Below, piece after piece: positions 7,921 to 53,505 of a stretch of 64,000 nucleotides of DNA (its first letter is position 1; each line of letters starts with the position of its first letter). Both the position numbers and the translations under genes were made by a program. Below the pieces are notes generated by a model. That model saw only the letters and a list, made by a program, of their open reading frames with translations. It was not told the origin of the DNA and did no database searches. The DNA comes from Candidatus Alloruminococcus vanvlietii (GTDB taxonomy: Bacteria; Bacillota; Clostridia; Oscillospirales; Ruminococcaceae). The DNA is taken from NCBI GenBank assembly GCA_904420505.1, contig CAJFVS010000025.1, forward strand, positions 21,004-85,003, in the 5' to 3' direction.

Positions 7921-8027
7921 ATCTTATCGCGAGTGGCTGAGGGACTGGCCCTATGACGCCCGGCAACAGCCTGTTTTTACAGGCCATGTGCTAATTCCTG
8001 CAGGGGGAAACCCCTGAAAGATAAGAG
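7921..8027 (+). promoter_or_regulatory. SAM-I (S-box) riboswitch aptamer
   Basis: Hallmark elements are present in order: CTTATC...GAGGGACTGGCCC...GACGCCCGGCAACC...GTGCTAATTCC...AGATAAG. The P1 halves CTTATC (7923..7928) and GATAAG (8020..8025) pair. It lies upstream of methionine-synthesis genes. Confidence 0.9.
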
Positions 8028-8111: not shown

Positions 8112-9395
8112 ATGGACAAGACTTTCAATCTTGAAACCCTGTGTGTACACGGCGCATACCACGCAAAAGACGGTGAGCCGCAGGTGATGCCGCTGGTGCA
8201 AAGCACCACCTACCGTTTCCAGGACCCGCAGGACGTGGCCGATTTGTTTGATTTAAAAAGCTTGGGCAGCTTTTATGCGCGCATCGGCAGCCCTACTGTG
8301 GATAATTTTGAAAAGAAAATGGCCCTTTTGGAAGGCGGCACCGCAGCGGTTGCCACCTCGTCCGGGCAGGCAGCTACCCTTATTACGCTGTTAAACCTGT
8401 GCCAAAGCGGCGACCATATCATCTCTTCGGCCAAAATTTACGGGGGCACCACCAACCTGTTCACCGTTACGCTCAAAAAGCTGGGCATCCAAACCACATT
8501 GATTGACCCCGACTGCTCGTTGGAGGAAATTTTGGCGTCTGCACAGCCCACCACCAAATTGATTTTTGCCGAATCGCTGGGCAACCCGGCTTTGAATGTT
8601 CTGGACATTGAAAAATTTGCAAACGCCGCCAAACAGCTTGGCGTGCCGCTGGTGGTGGATAACACCATCGCCTCCTCTTATCTATGCCAGCCCATCCAAC
8701 ACGGGGCCAATATCGTCATCCACTCCACCACCAAATACTGCGACGGCCATGCCACCAGCGTGGGCGGCGTAATTGTAGACGGCGGCAATTTTGATTGGGC
8801 CAACGGCAAATTCCCGGAATTTACCCAGCCGGATGAAAGCTACCACGGCACCGTTTACACCCGTGATTTTGGCAACATGGCGTTTGCCACCAAAGCCCGC
8901 GTGCAGATGCTGAGGGATTTGGGCTGCACCATGAGCCCCATGAACGCCTTTTTAACCAACCTGGGGCTGGAAACCTTGCACCTGCGCATGCGCTGCCACA
9001 GCGAAAACGCCTTAAAGCTGGCCCAGCATCTGGAGGCCTCGCCCTATGTGGATTGGGTAAACTACCCGGGGTTAAACAGCTCCCCTTATAACCAGTTGGC
9101 GCAAAAATACCTGCCTAAGGGCGCTTCGGGCGTTTTAACCTTTGGGGTAAAGGGCGGCAGGGAAGCCGGCGACCGCTTTATCCGCAACATTGATTTGACC
9201 TCTTTGGTGGTGCATGTGGGCGACCTTCGCACAAGCGTTTTGCACCCGGCCTCTACCACCCACCGCCAGTTAAGCGAACAAGACCAAATCAAGTCCGGCA
9301 TCCGCCCGGAGCTTATCCGCGTGTCGGTTGGTTTGGAAAATATCGACGATATCATCAAGGACTTTGACCAGGCTTTGCAAAAGGCCTGCCAGTAA
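8112..9395 (+). CDS. metY: O-acetylhomoserine sulfhydrylase (aminocarboxypropyltransferase), PLP-dependent
   Basis: 427 aa of the Cys/Met-metabolism PLP family, with the lysine motif HSTTKYCDGH. Its position behind a SAM riboswitch and next to metA supports the call. Confidence 0.9.
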   Translation: MDKTFNLETLCVHGAYHAKDGEPQVMPLVQSTTYRFQDPQDVADLFDLKSLGSFYARIGSPTVDNFEKKMALLEGGTAAVATSSGQAATLITLLNLCQSGDHIISSAKIYGGTTNLFTVTLKKLGIQTTLIDPDCSLEEILASAQPTTKLIFAESLGNPALNVLDIEKFANAAKQLGVPLVVDNTIASSYLCQPIQHGANIVIHSTTKYCDGHATSVGGVIVDGGNFDWANGKFPEFTQPDESYHGTVYTRDFGNMAFATKARVQMLRDLGCTMSPMNAFLTNLGLETLHLRMRCHSENALKLAQHLEASPYVDWVNYPGLNSSPYNQLAQKYLPKGASGVLTFGVKGGREAGDRFIRNIDLTSLVVHVGDLRTSVLHPASTTHRQLSEQDQIKSGIRPELIRVSVGLENIDDIIKDFDQALQKACQ

Positions 9396-15868: not shown

Positions 15869-16300
15869 CTATTCTACGGTAAAATACACCCCGGCGTTTA
15901 TTTGCCCCTGCGGCAGGTAAAACGATTTGACCAGCCGGTATTCGCCCTTGGGCAGGGGCTGCTCCCACGAATAGGTGTAAGCGGTTTCCTCCCCGGCGGG
16001 CAGCAAAATGCCGATGGCGTCTATGCTGCGTTGGTCCTGCATGGTGTACCATACGCCGTCCTGCTTGCGTTCCAGCGCGCAGACTTTGTCAAAGCTTGCT
16101 TCCTCCGCGCTGTTGTTTTGGATCACAAGCTCTACGGTTTTGTTTTCCAAATCCAGCGTTTGCACCCGCATTTGCACGGCCCCGTCCTCCTGCACCTTCA
16201 AAAAGGCGCTCTCCTGCTCGAAGGCGGCGTACTGGGTGCAGCTTGCAAACAGCACAAGGCACAATGCCAGGCAGGTAAAAACCCATGCTGCGCGTTTCAT
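15869..16300 (-). CDS. small lipoprotein / secreted beta-rich protein, unknown function
   Basis: 143 aa with signal MKRAAWVFTCLALCLVLFASCTQ. Its ATG overlaps the stop of the upstream gene (ATGA at 16297..16300). Confidence 0.65.
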   Translation of the reverse strand: MKRAAWVFTCLALCLVLFASCTQYAAFEQESAFLKVQEDGAVQMRVQTLDLENKTVELVIQNNSAEEASFDKVCALERKQDGVWYTMQDQRSIDAIGILLPAGEETAYTYSWEQPLPKGEYRLVKSFYLPQGQINAGVYFTVE

Positions 16301-17247
16301 GGGGTACCCCCTTTGTCAGAGCCGGAAGCCGCAGGCGGCAAAGGCGTCTGGGGGGCTTGTTTTTTGCGTTTGCGGCGCCGTTTGATGAGCAGGATGATGA
16401 CAACCACCGCCGCGATGATCACAAGATACGGCAGCGCCCATACAAGGCCCAGGAACACATTTTGCATGGCAGTGCCAAACTGCGAAAGCGAATCTTTTAC
16501 CGTGCTTACCAGCTTATCCCAAAAGCCCTGCTGTTGTACTTCCTGGTATTGGCGCACTTCCCGGACCGAAATGTTTATAGTGGAAAGGTCGACTTTGTCG
16601 TCGATGGAATTGAGCGTGCCTGTGATGGAATCCATCTCATACTGCACATCGGCCAGTTTGTCTTCAATCTGCAAAACCTGTTCCAAATCTTCGGCCTGGC
16701 TCAGCAGCTCGTTTAAGCGGTCATACTGGGTGCGCAGGGTGTTTAAGCGCAGCTCGTAATCGGTGTACTGGGCGGTTACGTCATCGGCGGTCTGTTCGGT
16801 ATACAGCACGTTGCCAATGCCCGAAAGCGCCTGCAAAAATTCGTTTAACTTGCCGCTGGGGATGCGCACGCAGAAATTGGCGCTGCGGCTGTTATAGCGG
16901 CCGGCGTTGATGCTGCTGCCCGATTGGCTGGAAGTTTGCACAAACCCGCCGAAAGATTCGATTTCCTGCTGCAGGTTTTCCAGCATGGCATCAAATTCCA
17001 GCGTTTCCATTTCCACTGTAACGGTTTTGATGATTTTTTCGCCGTTTTCAGCGGTATTCTCGGCCGGAATCATCACCCCGTTGCTCATGTCTTGCGCGGC
17101 GCTATTTACGGTTTCATGGCTGGTTTGTCCGGTGGAATAAGACGCCGAGTACGACGCCGTGTTGTCTTGCGCGGCCGAACAGCCGGCGAACGCCAATGCC
17201 AAAACCAGGGCTAAAACCAGCGCCAAAGCCTTTTTGGATGTTCTCAT
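16297..17247 (-). CDS. DUF4349-like lipoprotein (coiled-coil ectodomain plus C-terminal TM anchor)
   Basis: ORF 16297..17286, ATG 17247. It has a lipobox (LALAFAGCSAAQ), a long heptad-like segment (...RLNTLRTQYDRLNELLSQAEDLEQVLQIEDKLADVQYEMD...), then a TM helix and a KRRRKRKK tail. This architecture matches DUF4349 proteins. Confidence 0.7.
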   Translation of the reverse strand: MRTSKKALALVLALVLALAFAGCSAAQDNTASYSASYSTGQTSHETVNSAAQDMSNGVMIPAENTAENGEKIIKTVTVEMETLEFDAMLENLQQEIESFGGFVQTSSQSGSSINAGRYNSRSANFCVRIPSGKLNEFLQALSGIGNVLYTEQTADDVTAQYTDYELRLNTLRTQYDRLNELLSQAEDLEQVLQIEDKLADVQYEMDSITGTLNSIDDKVDLSTINISVREVRQYQEVQQQGFWDKLVSTVKDSLSQFGTAMQNVFLGLVWALPYLVIIAAVVVIILLIKRRRKRKKQAPQTPLPPAASGSDKGGTP

Positions 17248-17352
17248 AGTTCTCCCCCTTTCAAAACTTTTGCACAGATGTTCCAATAACCTGGAAACGT
17301 GGGGCGTTACAAAAATATTGGAAAATGTGAAAAAACTTTGTTTGGCGCCTGA

Positions 17353-33664: not shown

Positions 33665-34939
33665 TTATTCATAGCGCAGTGCTTCAATAGGGTCCATTTT
33701 GGCGGCTTTGCTGGCTGGATAATAGCCAAAAAACACGCCGATGGTCATGCTAAAAGCCACCGCAAACAAACATACCACCAAAGACGGTTTGGAGGCGTAC
33801 CCCAACAAGTTCGCACCTAAGGTGCCCAGCCCAATGCCCGCCAAAATACCCAGCATCCCGCCGATTAAACAGATAACCACCGATTCGACGATGAACTGGA
33901 ACCGTATCACGTTTTCTGAAGCGCCTAATGCTTTTCGCGTGCCGATTTCCCGTGTGCGCTCGGTAATGGAAACCAACATGATGTTCATTACCCCAATGCC
34001 GCCTACCAGCAAACTAATGGCTGCAATGGCCGAAATGGCCAGCGTTATGGTGCCAAGCATTTCGGTCATGGTTTCCACCATGCTTTCCATGCTGCTGGCA
34101 TTTACGGTATAACTGGGGTTACGGGTGTAAAAACTTTGAAAAAACTGCTTGGTTTTGCTTAAAAACTCGCTGCTATTTGTGTCGGTTGTGGTGACAACCG
34201 TAAAGCTCTAGTATCCATCGTTGCTGTAATTGAGCTTTTTTGCCAGTGTGATAGGAATATACATGGTTGTGGTGGTCGTAGAATTTTCCAGCGAAACGGT
34301 TTGGTCTTCATCGTATTCATAAATGCCCGCAATATAAAACGAAACCGCTGAATTGTTTACCGTGATATCCACCGTTTGGCCAACCACATTGCGGGTGGTG
34401 CCAAAAATTTCCTGCGCCAAGTAATCGGATACCACGCATACCTTTTTTTGCCCATCCAAATCCTCTTGGTTTAAAAAACGCCCGCTTATAATTGCAAGCT
34501 CCTCGCTTGTCTGTACGTCCACATTTACCCCTGTTACATTCACCGAGGAGGTTTCGGTGCCGTTTTTGGCGGTGTTTTGCCCCATGCTTTCGGTTAGAGC
34601 AATGGCGCTAATATTGGCGCCATAGGCCGTTCGGTATTCCTCAATCATTGCATCGCTTATCAAATCTTCCTCCGAGGGGCTGCTGGGGCCAAACAGCAAG
34701 CGCGCCCCACCCTGTTCGCTGTCGGTGTCCGTGCTTTTTTGGGTAAGCGAAACCGTGATGTTGTTGATTCCAAAAGAGGACATCGAATCGGTGATGGAAC
34801 CAGTAAGCGAATCGCCTACGGTAACAATGCCAATAACCGCCCCAATGCCGATGATAATGCCCAGCATGGTTAAAATCGCTCGCATTTTATTGGACTTTAA
34901 ACTGGAAAGTGCAAGCAAAATATTATCCCATATCTGCAT
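33665..34939 (-). pseudogene. MacB/FtsX-type ABC efflux permease interrupted by an in-frame TAG
   Basis: ORF 34208..34939 gives TM1 plus the MacB periplasmic domain (MQIWDNILLALSSLKSNKMRAILTMLGIIIG...). ORF 33665..34090 gives the FtsX 3-TM C-terminal domain. Both are in the same frame. Reading through TAG 34208..34210 gives ...[51 protein letters not shown]... Confidence 0.8.
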
Positions 34940-41354: not shown

Positions 41355-41384
41355 AAAAAAGCAGGCAGCCAAGGGGCCGCCTGC
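41355..41384 (-). terminator. intrinsic terminator after the M56 gene
   Basis: Minus-strand stem GCAGGCGGCC-cctt-GGCTGCCTGC followed by TTTTTT, 9 nt past the stop. Confidence 0.8.
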
Positions 41385-41393
41385 ATAAGGGCT

Positions 41394-44300
41394 TTATTGC
41401 TCGCGGGAATAGTAATCCCAGTAGTTGTAGCTGGTTATCTTAAGCGAAAGGTAAGCAAATGAACCGTCGTCGTAATCCTGTATGGTAAACTCCTTGATAA
41501 ATTTGAGCACCCAGAACGTCTCCGATTCGTATTCGCGCAGCGTGATGTGCAAAATATCCCCCTCGCGCGTGTACTCAAGCCTAAACAAAGGCGCATAGCC
41601 GCCCCCGCCGTAGCCGCCCTGGAAGGAATAGGTGTTGGTGGCAGGGTCGTATTCCTCGCCGGCAGCCGCCTGAATATCCTCACGGGTCAGGCAGGGGAAA
41701 TAATGCAAAATGGGGTCTTCCATAAAGGAAGCGTCCAGCGGTTGGCCGTTCATCATGGCTTCGTCTATTTGGTCGCTGTCCCCCAAAATAGAATAGCCCA
41801 GGCAATTGCGCAGCAGGTAGGGGTCTTTTATTTTCAAGGGGTTTTCCTCGTCAAAATCTTCTACAAAGGGGCTGAACATACTCTCCTCCATTTGCAGGTA
41901 TTTGTCAAACACCGCCTGCGCGTCTTCATCCATTTCGGGGCGTACGGCGTCTGCAAAATAGCTGTCGTCAATTAGCCAGCGCCCTTCGATTTTGACAATG
42001 CGGATGTACCGTTTTTGGCTTTCTTGGGCCATGGGCAGCTCCAGCGTGCACTCCACCGTGATGGTATCGGGCATCTTTTCCACCACCCGCATGCCCTCCA
42101 GCGAATAGTACCGCCCGGGCCCACCAAAATTGTAGCTCATCCACTGGGCGTTGTACAGCTTGCCGTCAAACAGCCGGTAGGTGTTGCGGAAGTCGGCTGC
42201 GTCCAGGCGCCAATCGAGCACCTTGGGCACAAAGGTGTTGTCAAAGTCGTAATACACATCCTCGGGGGTCTTGTATTTTTCAATCCAATCGTACAGATAA
42301 TAGATGGTGCCGTCCGCCTGCCGGGCGAATTGTTCCTCGCCCGTTCTACCGGCAGTCCAGTTTTCGGACAGCCACTCGGCGCGCTCCATCAATTGGACAG
42401 CGATGGACAAAGCGTCTTCATCGGAGGATTTGTAGTAAACATCATCGGTGATGGGATCGAATGCGGCAGTGGTAAGCGACACCGGTTGCCTGCTGTCTCC
42501 CCCATACCAGGTAACGGCGCTGTCGTTCGAGTAGAAATCGACATCGTAGGTGCCGTCGCGGTTGGTGGCGCGCACCGTAATGTTCAGGGAGAAAGGCTCC
42601 GTTCTGCCCGGCTCTTCAGGCAGTATCACGCGGTTGGACAGATACTCCCGCTCGTTTGCCAAAGCAATATCGCATTTTTGCCAGTAAAGGGGATTATCCT
42701 CATAAGGTGAATTTTCCGGCAGGCTGTCGCTGCCCCAGCGTTCGGGCGCCCAGATGCCGCGGTAGAGATATACCTGGTAGCCGGCGGGTCCGCTTTCGGC
42801 TTCGCACCCCAGCAGCCATACGCCCTGCACCACACCATGGGCATCCCCCGGCGTGTAATAACGCAGCTGGCTTATCTTTACAAAGGAGGGCACCGGCAGC
42901 GCAGAGGTAAGGGTATAGCTTTCCCCTCCGTTTTGGGTGGCAAGGCACAGCGCATCGGTGTTCTCGGGGTAGTCCTGCTGGAACACCACATAGCCGTTGT
43001 TTGGGTCGGCAAACGAAACCAGCACCCGGCTAATCTCGTCAAGGGCGTATGCAAACGCCGGCATCCCCGATATCTCAACAGGGCGCTGCTCCCACGTCTG
43101 GCCGCAGTCCTGGGTGGAATACAGCGTATACCCCTGCCCGTTTTGGTTTTTTACCACCGCTTTAGCAAAGGTTTGCCCCACGCTTACATCCCACTGGGTA
43201 TGGTATGTTTCTTCCAAAATCCCCTCCGCCGGGACTTTCACACTGTCATACCCGGGGAAGTACACATACAGCCCGTCCTCCTTGATTTCATGCCCCTGCG
43301 CAGGGTAGCTTTTGCTTAAAACGCTGGAAACATAGCGGAAGCTTTCTTCAAACGCTTCGGTGGTAAGGATGTAACCGGCAAGCGGCCGGCCGGTGCCATA
43401 GTCAAGCTGGTCAAACGAGATGCGCAGGATATCGCCGTCCTGTTCGTAGCCGGTTATGCGCACCATCGCTTTTTCCAAACGGTTTTCCTCGGGGAAATAC
43501 ACCGTGTTGTCGCCGGCATTGTAGGCGTCCAAATCGCTTATGTCAATGCCGGCTGTATCTATGTGCTGTGCTTTCAGCGCCTGTTCAACGGCGTCTGCCG
43601 GCCAGTTGTCGCCATAGGTTTGCCACAGCTCGCCGTTGTTGTAATCGCCTGCAATGCGCAGGATTTCTTCCCCCGAGCGCTCCATCCAGTAGTATTCCTG
43701 GGCCGCCAGCGAGCTGCGCACCGGTTTAAGATAGGTCTCATACAGCGCATAATATTCGCTGGCGCTGGTTTCGCTTATCTGCACAACCGGCAAAGCCACC
43801 GGCTTGTCTGTACGGTTTTGGCCAAAGCTTAAAAAGCCGTAATCGGTAAGGGAAAAGTACCCGTTCTGTTGGGTTTGTATGTCTAAGGCCTTGTCCTGCC
43901 CTACATCGGCAAGGGCGGCATAAGTTTCATGGGTCTGCTGCATGGCCTGTGCGGTGCCCGCAAAGCGGTAAACTTCATAGCTTGTGTCATCCAGCACATA
44001 TACGCAGATATTCTGCGTTTGCCCTTGTTTGAGTTTTTCCCATTTGTCCAAAATGCGCGCGCTGGTGGTAAAAGGGGTATCGCCGTACACAATGGCATCC
44101 GCCTGCTGCATCGCCTGCTGGTAAGCGGGGCTTTCTTCCACCTGCCGGGGCAGCTGCATGCCCTCTATCATGCTAAGCGACGGGGTATCGCTGCCTGCGC
44201 GGTTGGTTAAGAAAAACACGCATACCGCCGCCAGCAATATGAGCAGCACAATGCCCCATATCACCTTGGGCTTTTTAAAGCGCGCCAAATGTTCAATGCG

Positions 44301-45311
44301 TTTGACAATTTCCTTTTTGCCGTTTTGCAGGCTGGTGGTCATGGGGATAAACTGGTTTTTTTCCAAGGCTGTTTCCAGCAGCACCTGCGCATACAGCTTT
44401 TTGTTGCCCCCTGCCTGCACCACATGGTAATCGCACAGCAGTTCGGTATCCTTTTTAAAGGTGGAATAACACAGCCATATCACCGGGTTGTACCAAAACA
44501 AACACAATATGGCCGTTGCTAAAAAGCCAATGAGCACATCGTGGTGGCGCAGATGGCACAGCTCGTGGATGAGCACCTGCTCAAGCGGTTGTTCCTCATA
44601 TTGGCGCGGCAGCAAAATCACCGGCGAAAACACCCCTTTGAGCATTGGGGTATTGCCGTAAAGGCGCAGGTGCACCCTGCGTTTGACGCCTACTTTTTTC
44701 TTGCATTTTTGCAGCAAAGGGCCGTAGCCTGCACTGTAAATGCGGGCGTAGCGCTTTACCCGGTAAGAAAACACCGCGTACACCGCCACAAAATAGCCGC
44801 CCAGCAAAACCGCGCCCCCAAGCCACACCCATAGCACGGCGCGCATCACCCAATCCTGCAGCGAAAGCGTGGTTTGGGTATCGCGTATGGGGTTTTGCAC
44901 CACCACCTGACGGATATACAGCTTCTCTTCCTCGTTTTGGGCGCCTTGAAAAGGCTGCTGCGCACCGGTTTGCGCGCTTTGCGGCCGGGAAGTTTTTTCC
45001 TCTTCTGAATAGGCGGCATCCGCCCCCTGCTGCGCCCCTTGGGAAAGATTTCCCTGCACCGGGCTGCTTACCGGGGACTGGCTGGCGGTATCCGGGGCCG
45101 GCTGTATGGTCACCTGCTGCACGCTGGGGGTGTAATTAAACACGCTAAGCGGGCTTTGGGGCAGCACCGGCACCAGGATGCGGATAAGCAGCACCAGCCA
45201 TATGTAATACTGCCATTTGGCCGACATTTTTTTGGAAAACAGCGTTTTGATAAGCAAAATTGCCAAAGCGGTGACGGTGGTGGTAATGGTTATCTGGATG
45301 AGAAACTCCAT
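41394..45311 (-). CDS. M56/BlaR1-family membrane metalloprotease with ~930-aa uncharacterised extracellular C-terminal region
   Basis: ORF 41394..45338. ATG 45311 lies 1 nt after the blaI-like stop and 12 nt after GGAGGA. It has N-terminal TM helices, the HELCH zinc motif (44553..44567), a last TM (VIWGIVLLILLAAVCVFFL), then about 930 aa containing an Asp-box-like STQDCGQTW (43092..43118). Confidence 0.85.
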   Translation of the reverse strand: MEFLIQITITTTVTALAILLIKTLFSKKMSAKWQYYIWLVLLIRILVPVLPQSPLSVFNYTPSVQQVTIQPAPDTASQSPVSSPVQGNLSQGAQQGADAAYSEEEKTSRPQSAQTGAQQPFQGAQNEEEKLYIRQVVVQNPIRDTQTTLSLQDWVMRAVLWVWLGGAVLLGGYFVAVYAVFSYRVKRYARIYSAGYGPLLQKCKKKVGVKRRVHLRLYGNTPMLKGVFSPVILLPRQYEEQPLEQVLIHELCHLRHHDVLIGFLATAILCLFWYNPVIWLCYSTFKKDTELLCDYHVVQAGGNKKLYAQVLLETALEKNQFIPMTTSLQNGKKEIVKRIEHLARFKKPKVIWGIVLLILLAAVCVFFLTNRAGSDTPSLSMIEGMQLPRQVEESPAYQQAMQQADAIVYGDTPFTTSARILDKWEKLKQGQTQNICVYVLDDTSYEVYRFAGTAQAMQQTHETYAALADVGQDKALDIQTQQNGYFSLTDYGFLSFGQNRTDKPVALPVVQISETSASEYYALYETYLKPVRSSLAAQEYYWMERSGEEILRIAGDYNNGELWQTYGDNWPADAVEQALKAQHIDTAGIDISDLDAYNAGDNTVYFPEENRLEKAMVRITGYEQDGDILRISFDQLDYGTGRPLAGYILTTEAFEESFRYVSSVLSKSYPAQGHEIKEDGLYVYFPGYDSVKVPAEGILEETYHTQWDVSVGQTFAKAVVKNQNGQGYTLYSTQDCGQTWEQRPVEISGMPAFAYALDEISRVLVSFADPNNGYVVFQQDYPENTDALCLATQNGGESYTLTSALPVPSFVKISQLRYYTPGDAHGVVQGVWLLGCEAESGPAGYQVYLYRGIWAPERWGSDSLPENSPYEDNPLYWQKCDIALANEREYLSNRVILPEEPGRTEPFSLNITVRATNRDGTYDVDFYSNDSAVTWYGGDSRQPVSLTTAAFDPITDDVYYKSSDEDALSIAVQLMERAEWLSENWTAGRTGEEQFARQADGTIYYLYDWIEKYKTPEDVYYDFDNTFVPKVLDWRLDAADFRNTYRLFDGKLYNAQWMSYNFGGPGRYYSLEGMRVVEKMPDTITVECTLELPMAQESQKRYIRIVKIEGRWLIDDSYFADAVRPEMDEDAQAVFDKYLQMEESMFSPFVEDFDEENPLKIKDPYLLRNCLGYSILGDSDQIDEAMMNGQPLDASFMEDPILHYFPCLTREDIQAAAGEEYDPATNTYSFQGGYGGGGYAPLFRLEYTREGDILHITLREYESETFWVLKFIKEFTIQDYDDGSFAYLSLKITSYNYWDYYSREQ

Positions 45312-45312
45312 T

Positions 45313-45690
45313 TCATTCACCGTCCTCCATTTGCTCAATCATTTGCAAAAGCGCTTCTTTGTCCTGCTTGGAAAGCCCTTTTTCCCTGGTCAGGGTGGAC
45401 ACCAGCATGGAAACCGAACCGCCGAACACCCGCGATAAAAAATGCTCGGCCTCCTGGCACTGGCATTCCTGCTGGCTTACACAGGCCTGGTAAACATACG
45501 GCTTGCCGTTTGTTTTGTCCACCGTTACATAGGCTTTTTCCACCAGGCGGCGCAACAGCGTTTTGATGGTCGACTCGCTCCAGCCGCTGGCGCTGAGTTC
45601 TTCCAGCAGCTGCGCCCAGGTACAGGCTTTTTGCCGCCACAGCACCTGCATCACTTTCCATTCGGCTTCGGATATCGAATAGGCTTTCAT
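45313..45690 (-). CDS. BlaI/MecI/CopY-family transcriptional repressor
   Basis: 125 aa. MKAYSISEAEWKVMQVLW...WSESTIKTLLRRLVEKAYV is a winged-helix penicillinase-repressor-type domain. It is coupled to the M56 gene. Confidence 0.9.
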   Translation of the reverse strand: MKAYSISEAEWKVMQVLWRQKACTWAQLLEELSASGWSESTIKTLLRRLVEKAYVTVDKTNGKPYVYQACVSQQECQCQEAEHFLSRVFGGSVSMLVSTLTREKGLSKQDKEALLQMIEQMEDGE

Positions 45691-45705
45691 ATTTTCCCCT
45701 CCAAA

Positions 45706-45745
45706 GTTTACGTTTGTAACTTTAATTTCAGTTTACAATTGTAAC
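45706..45745. promoter_or_regulatory. two BlaI-type operator dyads (TTACA-N2-TGTAA type)
   Basis: GTTTACGTTTGTAAC (45706..45720) and GTTTACAATTGTAAC (45731..45745). The second contains the perfect palindrome TTACAATTGTAA. Centres are 25 bp apart and the dyads overlap the predicted promoter. Confidence 0.7.
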
Positions 45746-45758
45746 CATTGCTTGTCAA
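45730..45758 (-). promoter_or_regulatory. sigma-70-type promoter of the blaI-like operon
   Basis: On the minus strand: TTGACA (45758..45753), 17 nt, TAAACT (45735..45730). Confidence 0.55.
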
Positions 45759-45779
45759 GCCTTTTTTCATCTTTTGCAC

Positions 45780-45812
45780 AAAAAACAGCAGAGGGCGTCC
45801 TGTCCTCTGCTG
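45780..45812 (-). terminator. intrinsic terminator 190 nt downstream of glnS
   Basis: Minus-strand stem CAGCAGAGG-acaggacgc-CCTCTGCTG followed by TTTTTT, immediately upstream of the blaI-like promoter. Confidence 0.75.
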
Positions 45813-51367: not shown

Positions 51368-52366
51368 ATGATAAAACGCTTACTATGTGTGTCCCTTGCA
51401 GCGTGTTTGCTGGCGCTTTCGCTGGCTGCATGCACCAAAAGCGGGCCTACACAGCAGCTTGGGTTTGACCCTGACAACCCGCCTTCGTCCTCCTCTGCAT
51501 CCTCTTCGCCTGCAAGCGAATCTTCCCAATCGCAGCAAACGTCCTCGCAAAGCAGCACCATCACCCTGCCCAGCGACCCTGTGCAAAACGAAACCCACCG
51601 CGCTGTAGCCGAGCGCTTTGTCAACGCTTTGTGTTCGCATGATATCGCAACCATCAACGAGCTGACCAGCGCCAACGAAGGAATTTACAACCAACTGGAA
51701 AACGTGACTTTCAGCAATGTGGTATTGGGGGTAACATCCGAAAACGCCGACCCCAACCTTTACAGCGAATACACCCTTTCCTTTCACACCAACGAAGGGC
51801 AGACCGTCCTGCCAAGCGGCGATTATTCCTACCAGTTTGCCGTAGGCATGGCCCCTTATTCGGAAAAAGTGGGCATTCTGGATTTTGAAAGCACCACCAC
51901 CCAAAACCCCGATAACCTGCCCTACCAAAACGAAGCGGCCGCCCTTGCTTCTTTGTATATCGGCTTTTTCGGCACCACCGAATTTGCTACCCCCAGCGAT
52001 TTGAGCAGCCACGATATTTTGGAATTTGCCTTAATTTATATGATGAGCTTTTCCCCCGATACGGAAACCACGGTGGAAAATGTGCACAATGTCATAAGCC
52101 AGCTGTTTGGCATAACCGGCTTTGACGGGCGCGACAGCGTGATGTACGACGCCGAAACCGACAGCTACGTCCTGCTTGGGCGCGGCGGGCTTTCGATGAA
52201 TTACCACGTTTCCCAAAGCTATATTGACCCTGCCTCCGGGCAGTATGTTGTGGTTGCTTCGTTTTACAACGACCCTTTGCAGCTGTTTGCCCAATCGCAG
52301 ATGCGCTTTACTTTCCAGAAAAATGACGACGGCACCTTCCGGTTTGTGTCCGGCGTAAAACAATAG
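51368..52366 (+). CDS. lipoprotein with Ser-rich linker, unknown function
   Basis: ATG 51368 follows GAAAGGAG. Lipobox LALSLAACTKS. Confidence 0.65.
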   Translation: MIKRLLCVSLAACLLALSLAACTKSGPTQQLGFDPDNPPSSSSASSSPASESSQSQQTSSQSSTITLPSDPVQNETHRAVAERFVNALCSHDIATINELTSANEGIYNQLENVTFSNVVLGVTSENADPNLYSEYTLSFHTNEGQTVLPSGDYSYQFAVGMAPYSEKVGILDFESTTTQNPDNLPYQNEAAALASLYIGFFGTTEFATPSDLSSHDILEFALIYMMSFSPDTETTVENVHNVISQLFGITGFDGRDSVMYDAETDSYVLLGRGGLSMNYHVSQSYIDPASGQYVVVASFYNDPLQLFAQSQMRFTFQKNDDGTFRFVSGVKQ

Positions 52367-52545: not shown

Positions 52546-53349
52546 TTACAGGGTTAAAATTTCGCCGTCGTCGGGCACAAACAAATTGCCGCCAAAATAC
52601 GCCTTGCCTTCGGCGGTGTACAAAGCCTTGCGCTCGCTTATATGGGTGTCCTCGGTGTGCCATAGCACCAGGTTTTCTACGTTTAACGCGCTGGCCAGTT
52701 CACAGGCGTCCTTTACGGTGCTGTGGTGTTTTTCATAGGGCTTAAAGGTTTCCCGTTCGCCATACAGGCAAAATGCCTCGCTTAACAGCCAGCCGCTGTT
52801 TTTCACGTATTCTTCGCAGGTGGGCGAATACGGCTCGTCGCCCATGCAGGTAAACCGCTTACCGTTTTGCAAACGGGTGGTAAAGCCAAACTGGGGGGCT
52901 TTGGTGGAGTGGATATCAAAAAACGTGACCGGGTAGTGCAAAATCTGCCTGGTTTCCCCATCCTGCACCGGTACAAACACAATGCGCTCATCAAACAGGC
53001 GGGTCACTTTTTTTTGCAGCGTCAATTCACAGATGGTGCGAATCGTGCCCACAAGCCCGCTGTGGCAATAGATGTACAAATTCCCCTCGTATTTGCTTGC
53101 AAGCATCATGGTGCCGATTTTGCGGATCATCCACGGCATGCCCAGAATATGGTCGGTGTGCTCGTGGGTGACAAAAATGTGGTGGATTTTTTTAGGGTCT
53201 ATCTGCATATCCTGTAAAATGCGCAAAATCCCGTTGCCGCCGCCGGCGTCTACCATAAAGTATTCCTCGCCGTCGTACAAGGCAAAACAGGTGTTATAGC
53301 AGCGGGTCACCATAGCGTTGCCGGTGCCCAAAACGTATAATTTTTCCAT
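52546..53349 (-). CDS. MBL-fold metallo-hydrolase
   Basis: ORF 52546..53427, ATG 53349. HxHxDH motif (THEHTDHILG). Confidence 0.85.
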   Translation of the reverse strand: MEKLYVLGTGNAMVTRCYNTCFALYDGEEYFMVDAGGGNGILRILQDMQIDPKKIHHIFVTHEHTDHILGMPWMIRKIGTMMLASKYEGNLYIYCHSGLVGTIRTICELTLQKKVTRLFDERIVFVPVQDGETRQILHYPVTFFDIHSTKAPQFGFTTRLQNGKRFTCMGDEPYSPTCEEYVKNSGWLLSEAFCLYGERETFKPYEKHHSTVKDACELASALNVENLVLWHTEDTHISERKALYTAEGKAYFGGNLFVPDDGEILTL

Positions 53350-53505
53350 ATTGTATCCCGCTTTCTGCAAGGTTTTTTGCTTTTTTATTATCGCATACAC
53401 GCCCCATGAAAGCAAGGCAAAATCCAAATGGGGCCGTAAAATCTTGACAGAACCGGCCCAATTTGGATAGAATGAATTATAAACTGTTGCAAAGGAGCCG
53501 CTGCC

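Follow-up and report, generated by a model that had tools for sequence, protein, structure and literature searches.

What cue does a BlaI/BlaR1-type pair respond to when its membrane protease carries no penicillin-binding domain and no resistance gene lies beside it? This question is raised by a two-gene locus in a 64,000-nucleotide stretch of contig CAJFVS010000025.1 (positions 21,004 to 85,003 of the forward strand) from Candidatus Alloruminococcus vanvlietii. We refer to the whole stretch as the window and number positions from its first letter. The locus encodes a repressor of the BlaI/MecI family followed by a membrane metalloprotease of the M56 (BlaR1) family, here called the protease, which continues for 934 residues beyond its last transmembrane (TM) helix. 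The pair is probably an autoregulated signalling unit of the BlaI/BlaR1 family, in which the outer region of the protease consists of a DUF6070-like domain, a stretch that belongs to no family and half a DUF6070 domain, and which responds to a cue other than a beta-lactam. The coordinates of all features are collected in Table 1.

A repressor-protease pair of the BlaI/BlaR1 family

An original prediction, made from the sequence without database searches, had placed a BlaI-type repressor and an M56 protease in these two reading frames, and the family searches confirmed both assignments. The repressor was matched by the Pfam family Penicillinase_R (PF03965; 3.5e-31, 108.4 bits, cut-off 22.6), with its residues 6-120 covering profile positions 1-115 of 115, and it aligns end to end with MecI (6e-17) and BlaI (3e-12) in the PDB. 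The Pfam family Peptidase_M56 (PF05569) was matched by protease residues 121-341 (1.2e-52, 179.4 bits, cut-off 31). The HELCH zinc motif occupies residues 249-253 (44567..44553; H249, E250 and H253), while S. aureus BlaR1 has its zinc ligand E242 at the aligned position of E290, and D246 at that of D294, so that the motif of the M56 zinc site, HExxH plus a downstream Glu, is complete. The roles of H201, H205 and E242 in BlaR1, its autocleavage at Ser283-Phe284 and the cut in BlaI at Asn101-Phe102 have been described (PMC9834060). The residues NGKK (330-333), just past the position of BlaR1 autocleavage, are kept in the protease, for which proteolysis of itself and of the repressor is predicted.

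Hydrophobic segments were identified in a hydropathy scan at protease residues ~4-25, 36-52, 158-181, 259-283 and 349-371. These five segments and a basic TM1-TM2 loop would place residues 372-1305 outside the cell, as in the topology of BlaR1. The extracellular TM2-TM3 loop exceeds that of the nearest relatives by ~50 residues, as judged from alignment gaps, and by its position it may correspond to EL1, the signalling loop of BlaR1 (PMC9834060).

No PF00905 domain and no penicillin-binding or class D beta-lactamase-like domain was found in the protease by Pfam, NCBIfam and PDB sequence searches, and the match to BlaR1 in the PDB is confined to residues 230-366. The claim that the outer region is not a sensor of the penicillin-binding kind was thereby borne out. 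As there is no domain like that of a penicillin-binding protein (PBP), the cue cannot be a beta-lactam that acts by acylating such a domain.

Three close cysteines (C70, C76 and C78) were observed in repressor residues 70-78 (45457..45483, minus strand; ACVSQQECQCQE), where the dimerisation region begins. C76 is the sole one of the three that is common to the BlaI-like proteins of the related loci L001 and L002 (Table 1), and a redox or metal role for the cluster is possible, going by the residues themselves.

DUF6070-like modules in the outer region

The outer region comprises protease residues 372-1305 (934 amino acids, 41397..44198). Pfam, NCBIfam and PDB sequence searches with these residues gave no match, and Pfam searches with seven sub-segments at E-values of up to 10 returned only noise, with DUF6070 (PF19546) absent; the gathering score of PF19546 was not reached by the protease. 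A word-indexed homologue search with the outer region, for which the index is insensitive, recovered only the protein itself, and the same search with a DUF6070 alignment (A2) recovered only one of the alignment's own members. An exhaustive HMMER search of 1.84 billion representatives gave 38 weak matches, located in separate modules. A global MAFFT alignment of all 38 matches (A1) was discarded because the DUF6070 proteins were stretched across the whole query.

Module A, next to the membrane, aligns with whole proteins of ~340 residues at 25-31% identity (phmmer E-values from 2.4e-13 to ~1e-4). The matched proteins are lipobox-bearing lipoproteins, and DUF6070 was identified in most of the ones that were scanned. 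The closing motif of the family, EDGSFRYLSN, is kept in module A as EESFRYVSS. Module D, near the C-terminus, corresponds to DUF6070 profile positions ~161-337 and keeps both the glycine loop (FQGGYGGGG) and the closing motif (DDGSFAYLS). It was aligned by hhalign to alignment A4 (99.1%, E 8e-19) and to the module A profile A2 (96.6%). Half-domains like module D occur in lipoproteins, where they are preceded by an N-terminal domain and a Big_14 immunoglobulin-like domain. Homology at the sequence and profile-profile levels thus identifies modules A and D as divergent members, or at least homologues, of DUF6070. Neither has a signal peptide or start of its own, unlike the free lipoprotein homologues. 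The outer region, in which the original prediction could recognise no acyl-enzyme domain of the PBP type, is not fully unrecognisable, residues 665-1115 being the part without a family; of the profile and structure searches that the prediction proposed, those with HMMER and hhalign revealed the DUF6070 homology, whereas Foldseek gave no significant match in the PDB.

The AlphaFold2 model of module A has a predicted local distance difference test score (pLDDT) of 82.4 and a predicted template modelling score of 0.78, and suggests an alpha/beta subdomain at the N-terminus, then a helical segment and, at the end, a four-stranded sheet. Modelling of residues 665-1305 was usable for residues 1124-1296 only, with a pLDDT of 83-96 in module D. 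Recurring weak Foldseek matches were to NTF2-like and cystatin-like proteins, to tandem VirB8/TcpC-like cones and to the S1C-NTF2 part of RsgI9, which hints at a fold class and is not an assignment.

DUF6070 is otherwise found in clostridial lipoproteins of ~340 amino acids, and also as the outer domain of M56 proteins of ~700 amino acids encoded beside blaI. The neighbourhoods of the free lipoproteins contained housekeeping or mobile-element genes and offered no functional clue. Within the window, a free-standing, divergent DUF6070-like lipoprotein with a lipobox is encoded 5.7 kb from blaI (51369..52366, plus strand; start MIKRLLCVSLAAC...). It was recovered by hmmsearch with the A2 profile (E 2.5e-6) and by hhalign (96.8%, E 2e-10), with no match to the Pfam DUF6070 model, and no BlaI-type box was seen upstream of the gene. 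A small Big_14 immunoglobulin-like protein (15875..16315) adjoins a DUF4349 protein (16297..17286, minus strand); Big_14 is the domain that precedes the half-domain in lipoproteins of the module D type.

The middle region and its relative

For the middle region, from residue 786 on, the sole relative found is a metagenomic sequence represented by two contigs (L015 and L016), and no relative was recovered in a scan of Joint Genome Institute (JGI) metagenome contigs with residues 665-1305. The two contigs overlap with 0 mismatches and 6 single-base indels. Because they represent the same sequence and differ by single-base indels only, their frameshifts are read errors, and the gene calls made on them (P0072, P0085 and P0110) are therefore mere fragments; the actual gene is probably unbroken and extends further. 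Together, L015 and L016 cover residues 786-1236 in one piece, with 33% identity over residues 786-1023 and 60-68% over residues 984-1236, and this unbroken span independently supports the passage from the middle region into module D.

Related M56 proteins and the exchange of outer domains

We scanned 185,579 species-representative genomes, a set that does not include the source organism's own genome, with the full protein. The scan gave 11 loci, which were matched in the M56 module only, and no full-length orthologue was found in these genomes or in the JGI metagenomes. The nearest M56 modules (37-55% identity) are found in proteins 244-588 residues long, and DUF4825 is present in some of these; homology to the nearest relatives ends at the last TM helix. 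In the two nearest species-representative relatives (L001 and L002), the M56 gene follows a blaI gene and encodes ~300 unassigned outer residues ahead of a C-terminal DUF4825 domain. As both proteins are also long, extended M56 outer regions with several modules are a recurring feature in uncultured Clostridia. No relation between alignment A2 and the outer region of L001 was found with hhalign.

Fusions of M56 to a region homologous to module A were identified in P0081 and P0108, of which P0108 is matched by the Pfam DUF6070 model and P0081 is not. The survey of homologues and their neighbourhoods that the original prediction had called for showed that in three independent contigs the gene for P0111, a fusion of the P0081 cluster, comes immediately after one for a Penicillinase_R protein. 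The M56 modules of P0081, P0111 and P0108 are only 28-30% identical to the one studied here, as compared to 37-41% for the nearest relatives with DUF4825. The presence of DUF4825 in the closest M56 relatives and of DUF6070 in distant ones indicates that M56 scaffolds have swapped their outer domains, as would be expected if these act as input modules.

In a study of CenIR published in 2026, ~15,000 M56 proteins were sorted into 254 architectures, the commonest of which is M56 followed by a C-terminal region with no identifiable domain (PMC13492132). In the same study, transpeptidase-bearing BlaR proteins account for ~6% of M56 proteins, a blaI-like gene is located at most five genes from 96% of the M56 genes, usually upstream, and the diverse outer domains of the family sit after the last TM helix (PMC13492132). 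Non-canonical BlaIR systems have been studied in C. difficile and mycobacteria (PMC13492132), in P. aeruginosa as PvmSR (bioRxiv 10.64898/2026.08.03.742534) and in Synechocystis as PetRP (a preprint). A class of BlaIR systems that do not sense beta-lactams is thus already published and widespread (PMC13492132), and M56-DUF6070 proteins beside blaI occur elsewhere, so that the novelty first claimed for the locus was overstated. The locus is an unusual member of that class, which stands out by the size of its outer region, the one and a half copies of DUF6070 and the near-unique insert of ~450 residues.

Operon signals and gene neighbourhood

The repressor TGA (45315..45313) is separated by one base from the protease ATG at 45311, from which the frame runs for 1305 codons to a TAA at 41396..41394. 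A mechanical list of open reading frames (ORFs) had the protease start at TTG 45338; the ATG is preferred because the homologues P0004 and P0005 align from it. The promoter, operators and terminator (41361..41384) predicted for the unit were all located. The putative sigma-70-type promoter matches 10 of 12 consensus positions, and its assignment is by consensus match only. The operator consensus of the BlaI/MecI type is TTACA-NN-TGTAA, and the core of box 1, TTACAATTGTAA (45733-45744), is a perfect palindrome that fits it. Box 1 is also the sole site with 0 mismatches to the pattern TTACANNTGTAA in the 64-kb window. A palindromic TACA/TGTA operator, as expected for this repressor family, is therefore present by sequence match within the pair's own promoter, where binding is predicted. 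Relaxed searches gave sites at chance level only, and no convincing second operator target was found in the window.

A hairpin upstream of the promoter (45780..45812) probably terminates glnS and would shield the blaI promoter from transcription arriving from that side. It was not listed by the terminator scan because its loop of 9 nt exceeds the 3-8 nt that the scan accepts. The genes around the pair are glnS, an rlmA-like methyltransferase gene, typA and a DUF1015 gene, all with housekeeping functions. The statement that no beta-lactamase or PBP2a-type gene adjoins the pair was upheld, with no beta-lactamase, PBP or PBP2a gene and no copA or copZ among the flanking genes. An Rfam search of the locus gave no match.

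A gene for a MacB-like ABC permease appears to be split (33665..34939, minus strand). The MacB_PCD ORF (34208..34939) ends with TAG and is followed after a short gap by an ORF of 141 amino acids (33665..34090), which may point to a pseudogene or to a frameshift introduced by sequencing. Within the gap lies a BlaI-type box with one mismatch, TTACACCCGTAA (34119-34130), which is at chance level.

Proposed mechanism and points that weigh against it

We propose that, at rest, a dimer of the repressor would occupy both boxes of the TTACA-NN-TGTAA type, of which one overlaps its own promoter and the other follows it. An extracellular or cell-envelope cue would be bound by the DUF6070 modules, or would reposition them, and the change would be relayed via the last TM helix, and possibly the enlarged TM2-TM3 loop, to the cytoplasmic HExxH...E site, as modelled on S. 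aureus BlaR1. The protease would then cut the repressor in the linker before the dimerisation helix, and the operon, along with any operator-bearing genes elsewhere in the genome, would be derepressed.

Several observations weigh against this proposal. The action of the cue, the cleavage of the repressor and the derepression are taken from homology to BlaR1 and BlaI, and the scissile Asn-Phe pair of S. aureus BlaI and MecI aligns to Thr99-Leu100 in this repressor. Since the pair is absent at the aligned position, which varies among relatives (SF, TL and NL), the cleavage site, if there is one, must differ in specificity; it is predicted to lie near Thr99-Leu100. Module A has FPEENRLEK in place of the conserved YEGGRGG loop of the family, and Foldseek searches of the PDB with both module models returned nothing at an E-value of 1e-3 or better. 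DUF6070 is a family without known function, and no paper that mentions it was found. The ~450 residues of the middle region are uninterpretable, with an AlphaFold2 pLDDT below 50 throughout and almost no regular structure. Finally, the only operators visible in the 64-kb window are the autoregulatory ones.

A more far-reaching idea, which we put forward tentatively and consider doubtful, is that the DUF6070 modules, perhaps with the middle region, are a previously unrecognised type of ligand-binding sensor in gut and other anaerobic Clostridia. Tandem cones of the NTF2/VirB8 type would detect an envelope, host or diet molecule, and free DUF6070 lipoproteins, including the product of 51369..52366, would bind the same ligand or dock on the sensor. 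If this were true, a receptor-plus-binding-protein input would feed a proteolytic repressor switch.

Alternative explanations

That the pair is a canonical switch, either a beta-lactam sensor like BlaR1/MecR1 or a copper switch of the CopY type, has next to no chance of being correct and is already contradicted by the family models. The best NCBIfam matches do carry such names, blaR1_generic for the protease and CopY_TcrY (TIGR02698) for the repressor, but the former scored 134.9 bits against a cut-off of 400 and covers model positions 84-320 of 585 only, in the protease half, and the MecR1 and BlaR1 models scored 49.6 and 13.9 against cut-offs of 1200. CopY_TcrY scored 90.2 bits against a cut-off of 121.95, and the repressor does not reach the curated cut-offs of the equivalog models for BlaI, MecI and CopY. 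CopY-type copper repressors have a C-terminal CxCx4CxC metal site; the C-terminus of this repressor, ...LLQMIEQMEDGE (ending QMEDGE), contains no such motif and no cysteine. A gene for a metallo-beta-lactamase-fold hydrolase is located ~7 kb from the pair (52546..53427, minus strand; Lactamase_B_2, 3.7e-14), but as only the general superfamily is matched and the gene has no operator near it, it gives no evidence of a beta-lactam link. The absence of a PF00905 or class D domain and of adjoining resistance or copper genes also speaks against a canonical switch. Another reading goes back to the original prediction, which had taken two Asp-box motifs as a hint of beta-propeller-like binding modules, and on which the outer region would be a glycan-binding, BNR-type propeller sensor. 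Two loose Asp-box-like octapeptides 59 residues apart occurred in only 0.04% of composition shuffles, a figure that is weakened because the pattern was chosen after the motifs had been seen; a third look-alike, SNDSAVTW (residues 928-935), was seen by eye, and PSII_BNR gave a faint trace over residues 725-759 (E 0.19). Asp-boxes are present in proteins without a propeller too, none of the BNR, sialidase and Vps10 profiles matched significantly, and self-BLAST found no internal repeat. Neither the second motif nor SNDSAVTW is conserved in the sole relative, L015/L016, whose reads carry indel errors. As neither repeated blades nor a profile match nor the fold was found in a region with a pLDDT below 50, we regard the propeller reading as unsupported and improbable.

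The 1305-codon ORF might instead have arisen by the joining of separate genes through an error of assembly or annotation. The exact protein was found on one contig only, the search for a full-length orthologue was negative, and the point where module A gives way to the middle region, near residue 665 (~43320), is the only junction with no independent confirmation. On the other hand, codon-usage log-odds, from a model trained on other genes of the window, are above zero in frame 0 and below zero in each alternative frame over the full length of the ORF, with a steady GC content at third codon positions and no stop or frame change. The M56-DUF6070 junction was seen independently in P0081, P0108 and P0111, the junction of the middle region with module D is present in an independent organism (L015 and L016), and modules A and D have no signal peptide or start of their own, all of which makes a fusion artefact very improbable. 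If the protein is real, it could still be something other than a ligand sensor, with a surface scaffold, adhesin or enzyme outside the cell and a repressor that is degraded constitutively or upon a membrane or cytoplasmic cue. Most DUF6070 relatives are indeed free lipoproteins in housekeeping neighbourhoods with no hint of signalling, S. aureus BlaR1 undergoes spontaneous autocleavage (PMC9834060), and for CenIR no condition that induces it could be identified (PMC13492132). Yet the outer region is located where the M56 family carries its diverse outer domains (PMC13492132), and such domains have been exchanged between related M56 modules in the manner of inputs, for which reason we think this explanation unlikely. 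The reading of the locus as a signalling pair with a DUF6070-containing input is the one that we retain.

Features of the window

Table 1. Features of the locus and sequences related to it. Positions refer to the window, except for the last two rows.
Feature	Position	Strand	Remarks
blaI/mecI-type winged-helix repressor gene	45313..45690	minus	125 amino acids; ribosome-binding site GGAGGGG at 45702..45696
M56 (BlaR1-type) membrane metalloprotease-sensor gene	41394..45311	minus	1305 amino acids, one continuous reading frame
Transmembrane and cytoplasmic gluzincin module	44187..45311	minus	Protease residues 1-375
TM2-TM3 extracellular loop (predicted)	44847..45155	minus	Protease residues 53-155; rich in Q, S and P
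Module A, complete DUF6070-like domain	43320..44186	minus	Protease residues 376-664
Middle region	41967..43319	minus	Protease residues 665-1115; no family, profile or confident model
Asp-box-like STQDCGQTW	43092..43118	minus	Protease residues 732-740
Weaker Asp-box-like TQNGGESY	42915..42938	minus	Protease residues 792-799
Module D, copy of the C-terminal half of DUF6070	41424..41966	minus	Protease residues 1116-1296
Sigma-70-type promoter of the two-gene operon (putative)	45730..45758	minus	-35 TTGACA 45758..45753, 17-nt spacer, -10 TAAACT 45735..45730
Operator box 1 (predicted), GTTACAATTGTAAAC	45731..45745	minus	Overlaps the spacer and the -10 hexamer
Operator box 2 (predicted), GTTACAAACGTAAAC	45706..45720	minus	One mismatch to the palindrome; between promoter and ribosome-binding site
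Intrinsic terminator (predicted)	41361..41384	minus	10-bp stem with 8 GC pairs, then TTTTTTGCGT; begins 10 nt past the stop codon
Hairpin CAGCAGAGG-N9-CCTCTGCTG, then TTTTTT	45780..45812	minus	Read directly from the sequence
Contigs L015 (1195 bp) and L016 (1009 bp)	Logan runs SRR31481493, SRR31481497		Sole relative of the middle region
Nearest species-representative M56 relatives	L001 4365..7073; L002 7950..10328		902 amino acids (L001); 792 amino acids (L002)

Apart from these features, an S-adenosylmethionine riboswitch (S-box leader; Rfam RF00162) was identified at 7921..8027 on the plus strand (90.5 bits, E 2.8e-20), upstream of an ORF of 427 amino acids (8112..9395).

Significance and comparison with known systems

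The repeated use of DUF6070 as the outer domain of M56 proteins gives this family of clostridial lipoproteins its first functional context, that of signal input. The swap between DUF4825 and DUF6070 in related M56 modules supports a design with plug-in sensors, and the 934 outer residues are an extreme case of how far the outer region of an M56 protein can grow. More generally, BlaI/BlaR1-type switches form a broad family of one-step proteolytic signalling systems. The locus has no bearing on beta-lactam resistance, and by itself it opens no long-standing question; its organism is uncultured or barely sampled.

The pair resembles BlaR1/BlaI of S. aureus and B. licheniformis and MecR1/MecI in the M56 gluzincin site (HExxH...E), the predicted topology with a sensor after the last TM helix, the Penicillinase_R repressor and the TTACA-NN-TGTAA-type operators that overlap its own promoter. 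It differs from these systems in having no penicillin-binding domain, an outer region of 934 as compared to ~260 residues and a TM2-TM3 loop of 103 as compared to ~40 residues. Also unlike in these systems, the Asn-Phe pair is replaced by Thr-Leu and no beta-lactamase or PBP2a gene adjoins the operon, and both proteins fall under the curated cut-offs of all models for BlaR1, MecR1, BlaI and MecI.

Other known systems are CenIR of C. difficile, BlaIR of M. tuberculosis and M. abscessus, PvmSR and PetRP, which have the same order of blaI before blaR and an M56 protein without a transpeptidase domain; CenIR and the other non-canonical BlaIR systems likewise have no linked beta-lactamase. The C-terminal tails of CenR and its C. 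difficile paralogues are short and mostly unstructured (PMC13492132), whereas the outer region described here is very large, folded and multi-modular. The M56-DUF6070 fusions P0081 and P0111 (~705 amino acids) and P0108 (677 amino acids) share with the protease the succession of M56, linker and an outside DUF6070 domain, and with the pair a Penicillinase_R gene immediately upstream. These proteins end after a single DUF6070 domain, in which the YEGGRGG loop is intact, while the present one has a degenerate copy, an insert of ~450 residues and a second half-copy.

The DUF6070 lipoproteins and the Big_14/DUF6070-C lipoproteins (P0076, P0088 and others) are 25-37% identical to modules A and D, and the closing motif ...GDxL.I....Y......LT....DGSF.YLS is shared between these lipoproteins and the modules. 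In contrast to modules A and D, the lipoproteins of both kinds are free, secreted proteins of 250-520 residues with a lipobox of their own and are not attached to a protease. By analogy of design only, the pair can also be compared to the RsgI-type anti-sigma factors of C. thermocellum, such as RsgI9, in which a membrane regulator with one or a few passes has its input set by an exchangeable outer domain. The structural matches of the module models to the S1C-NTF2 part of RsgI9 and to tandem NTF2/VirB8-like structures are not significant (E >1e-3, TM-score 0.2 or less), and the outputs differ, being an anti-sigma factor in RsgI and, as predicted here, proteolysis of a repressor by an M56 protease.

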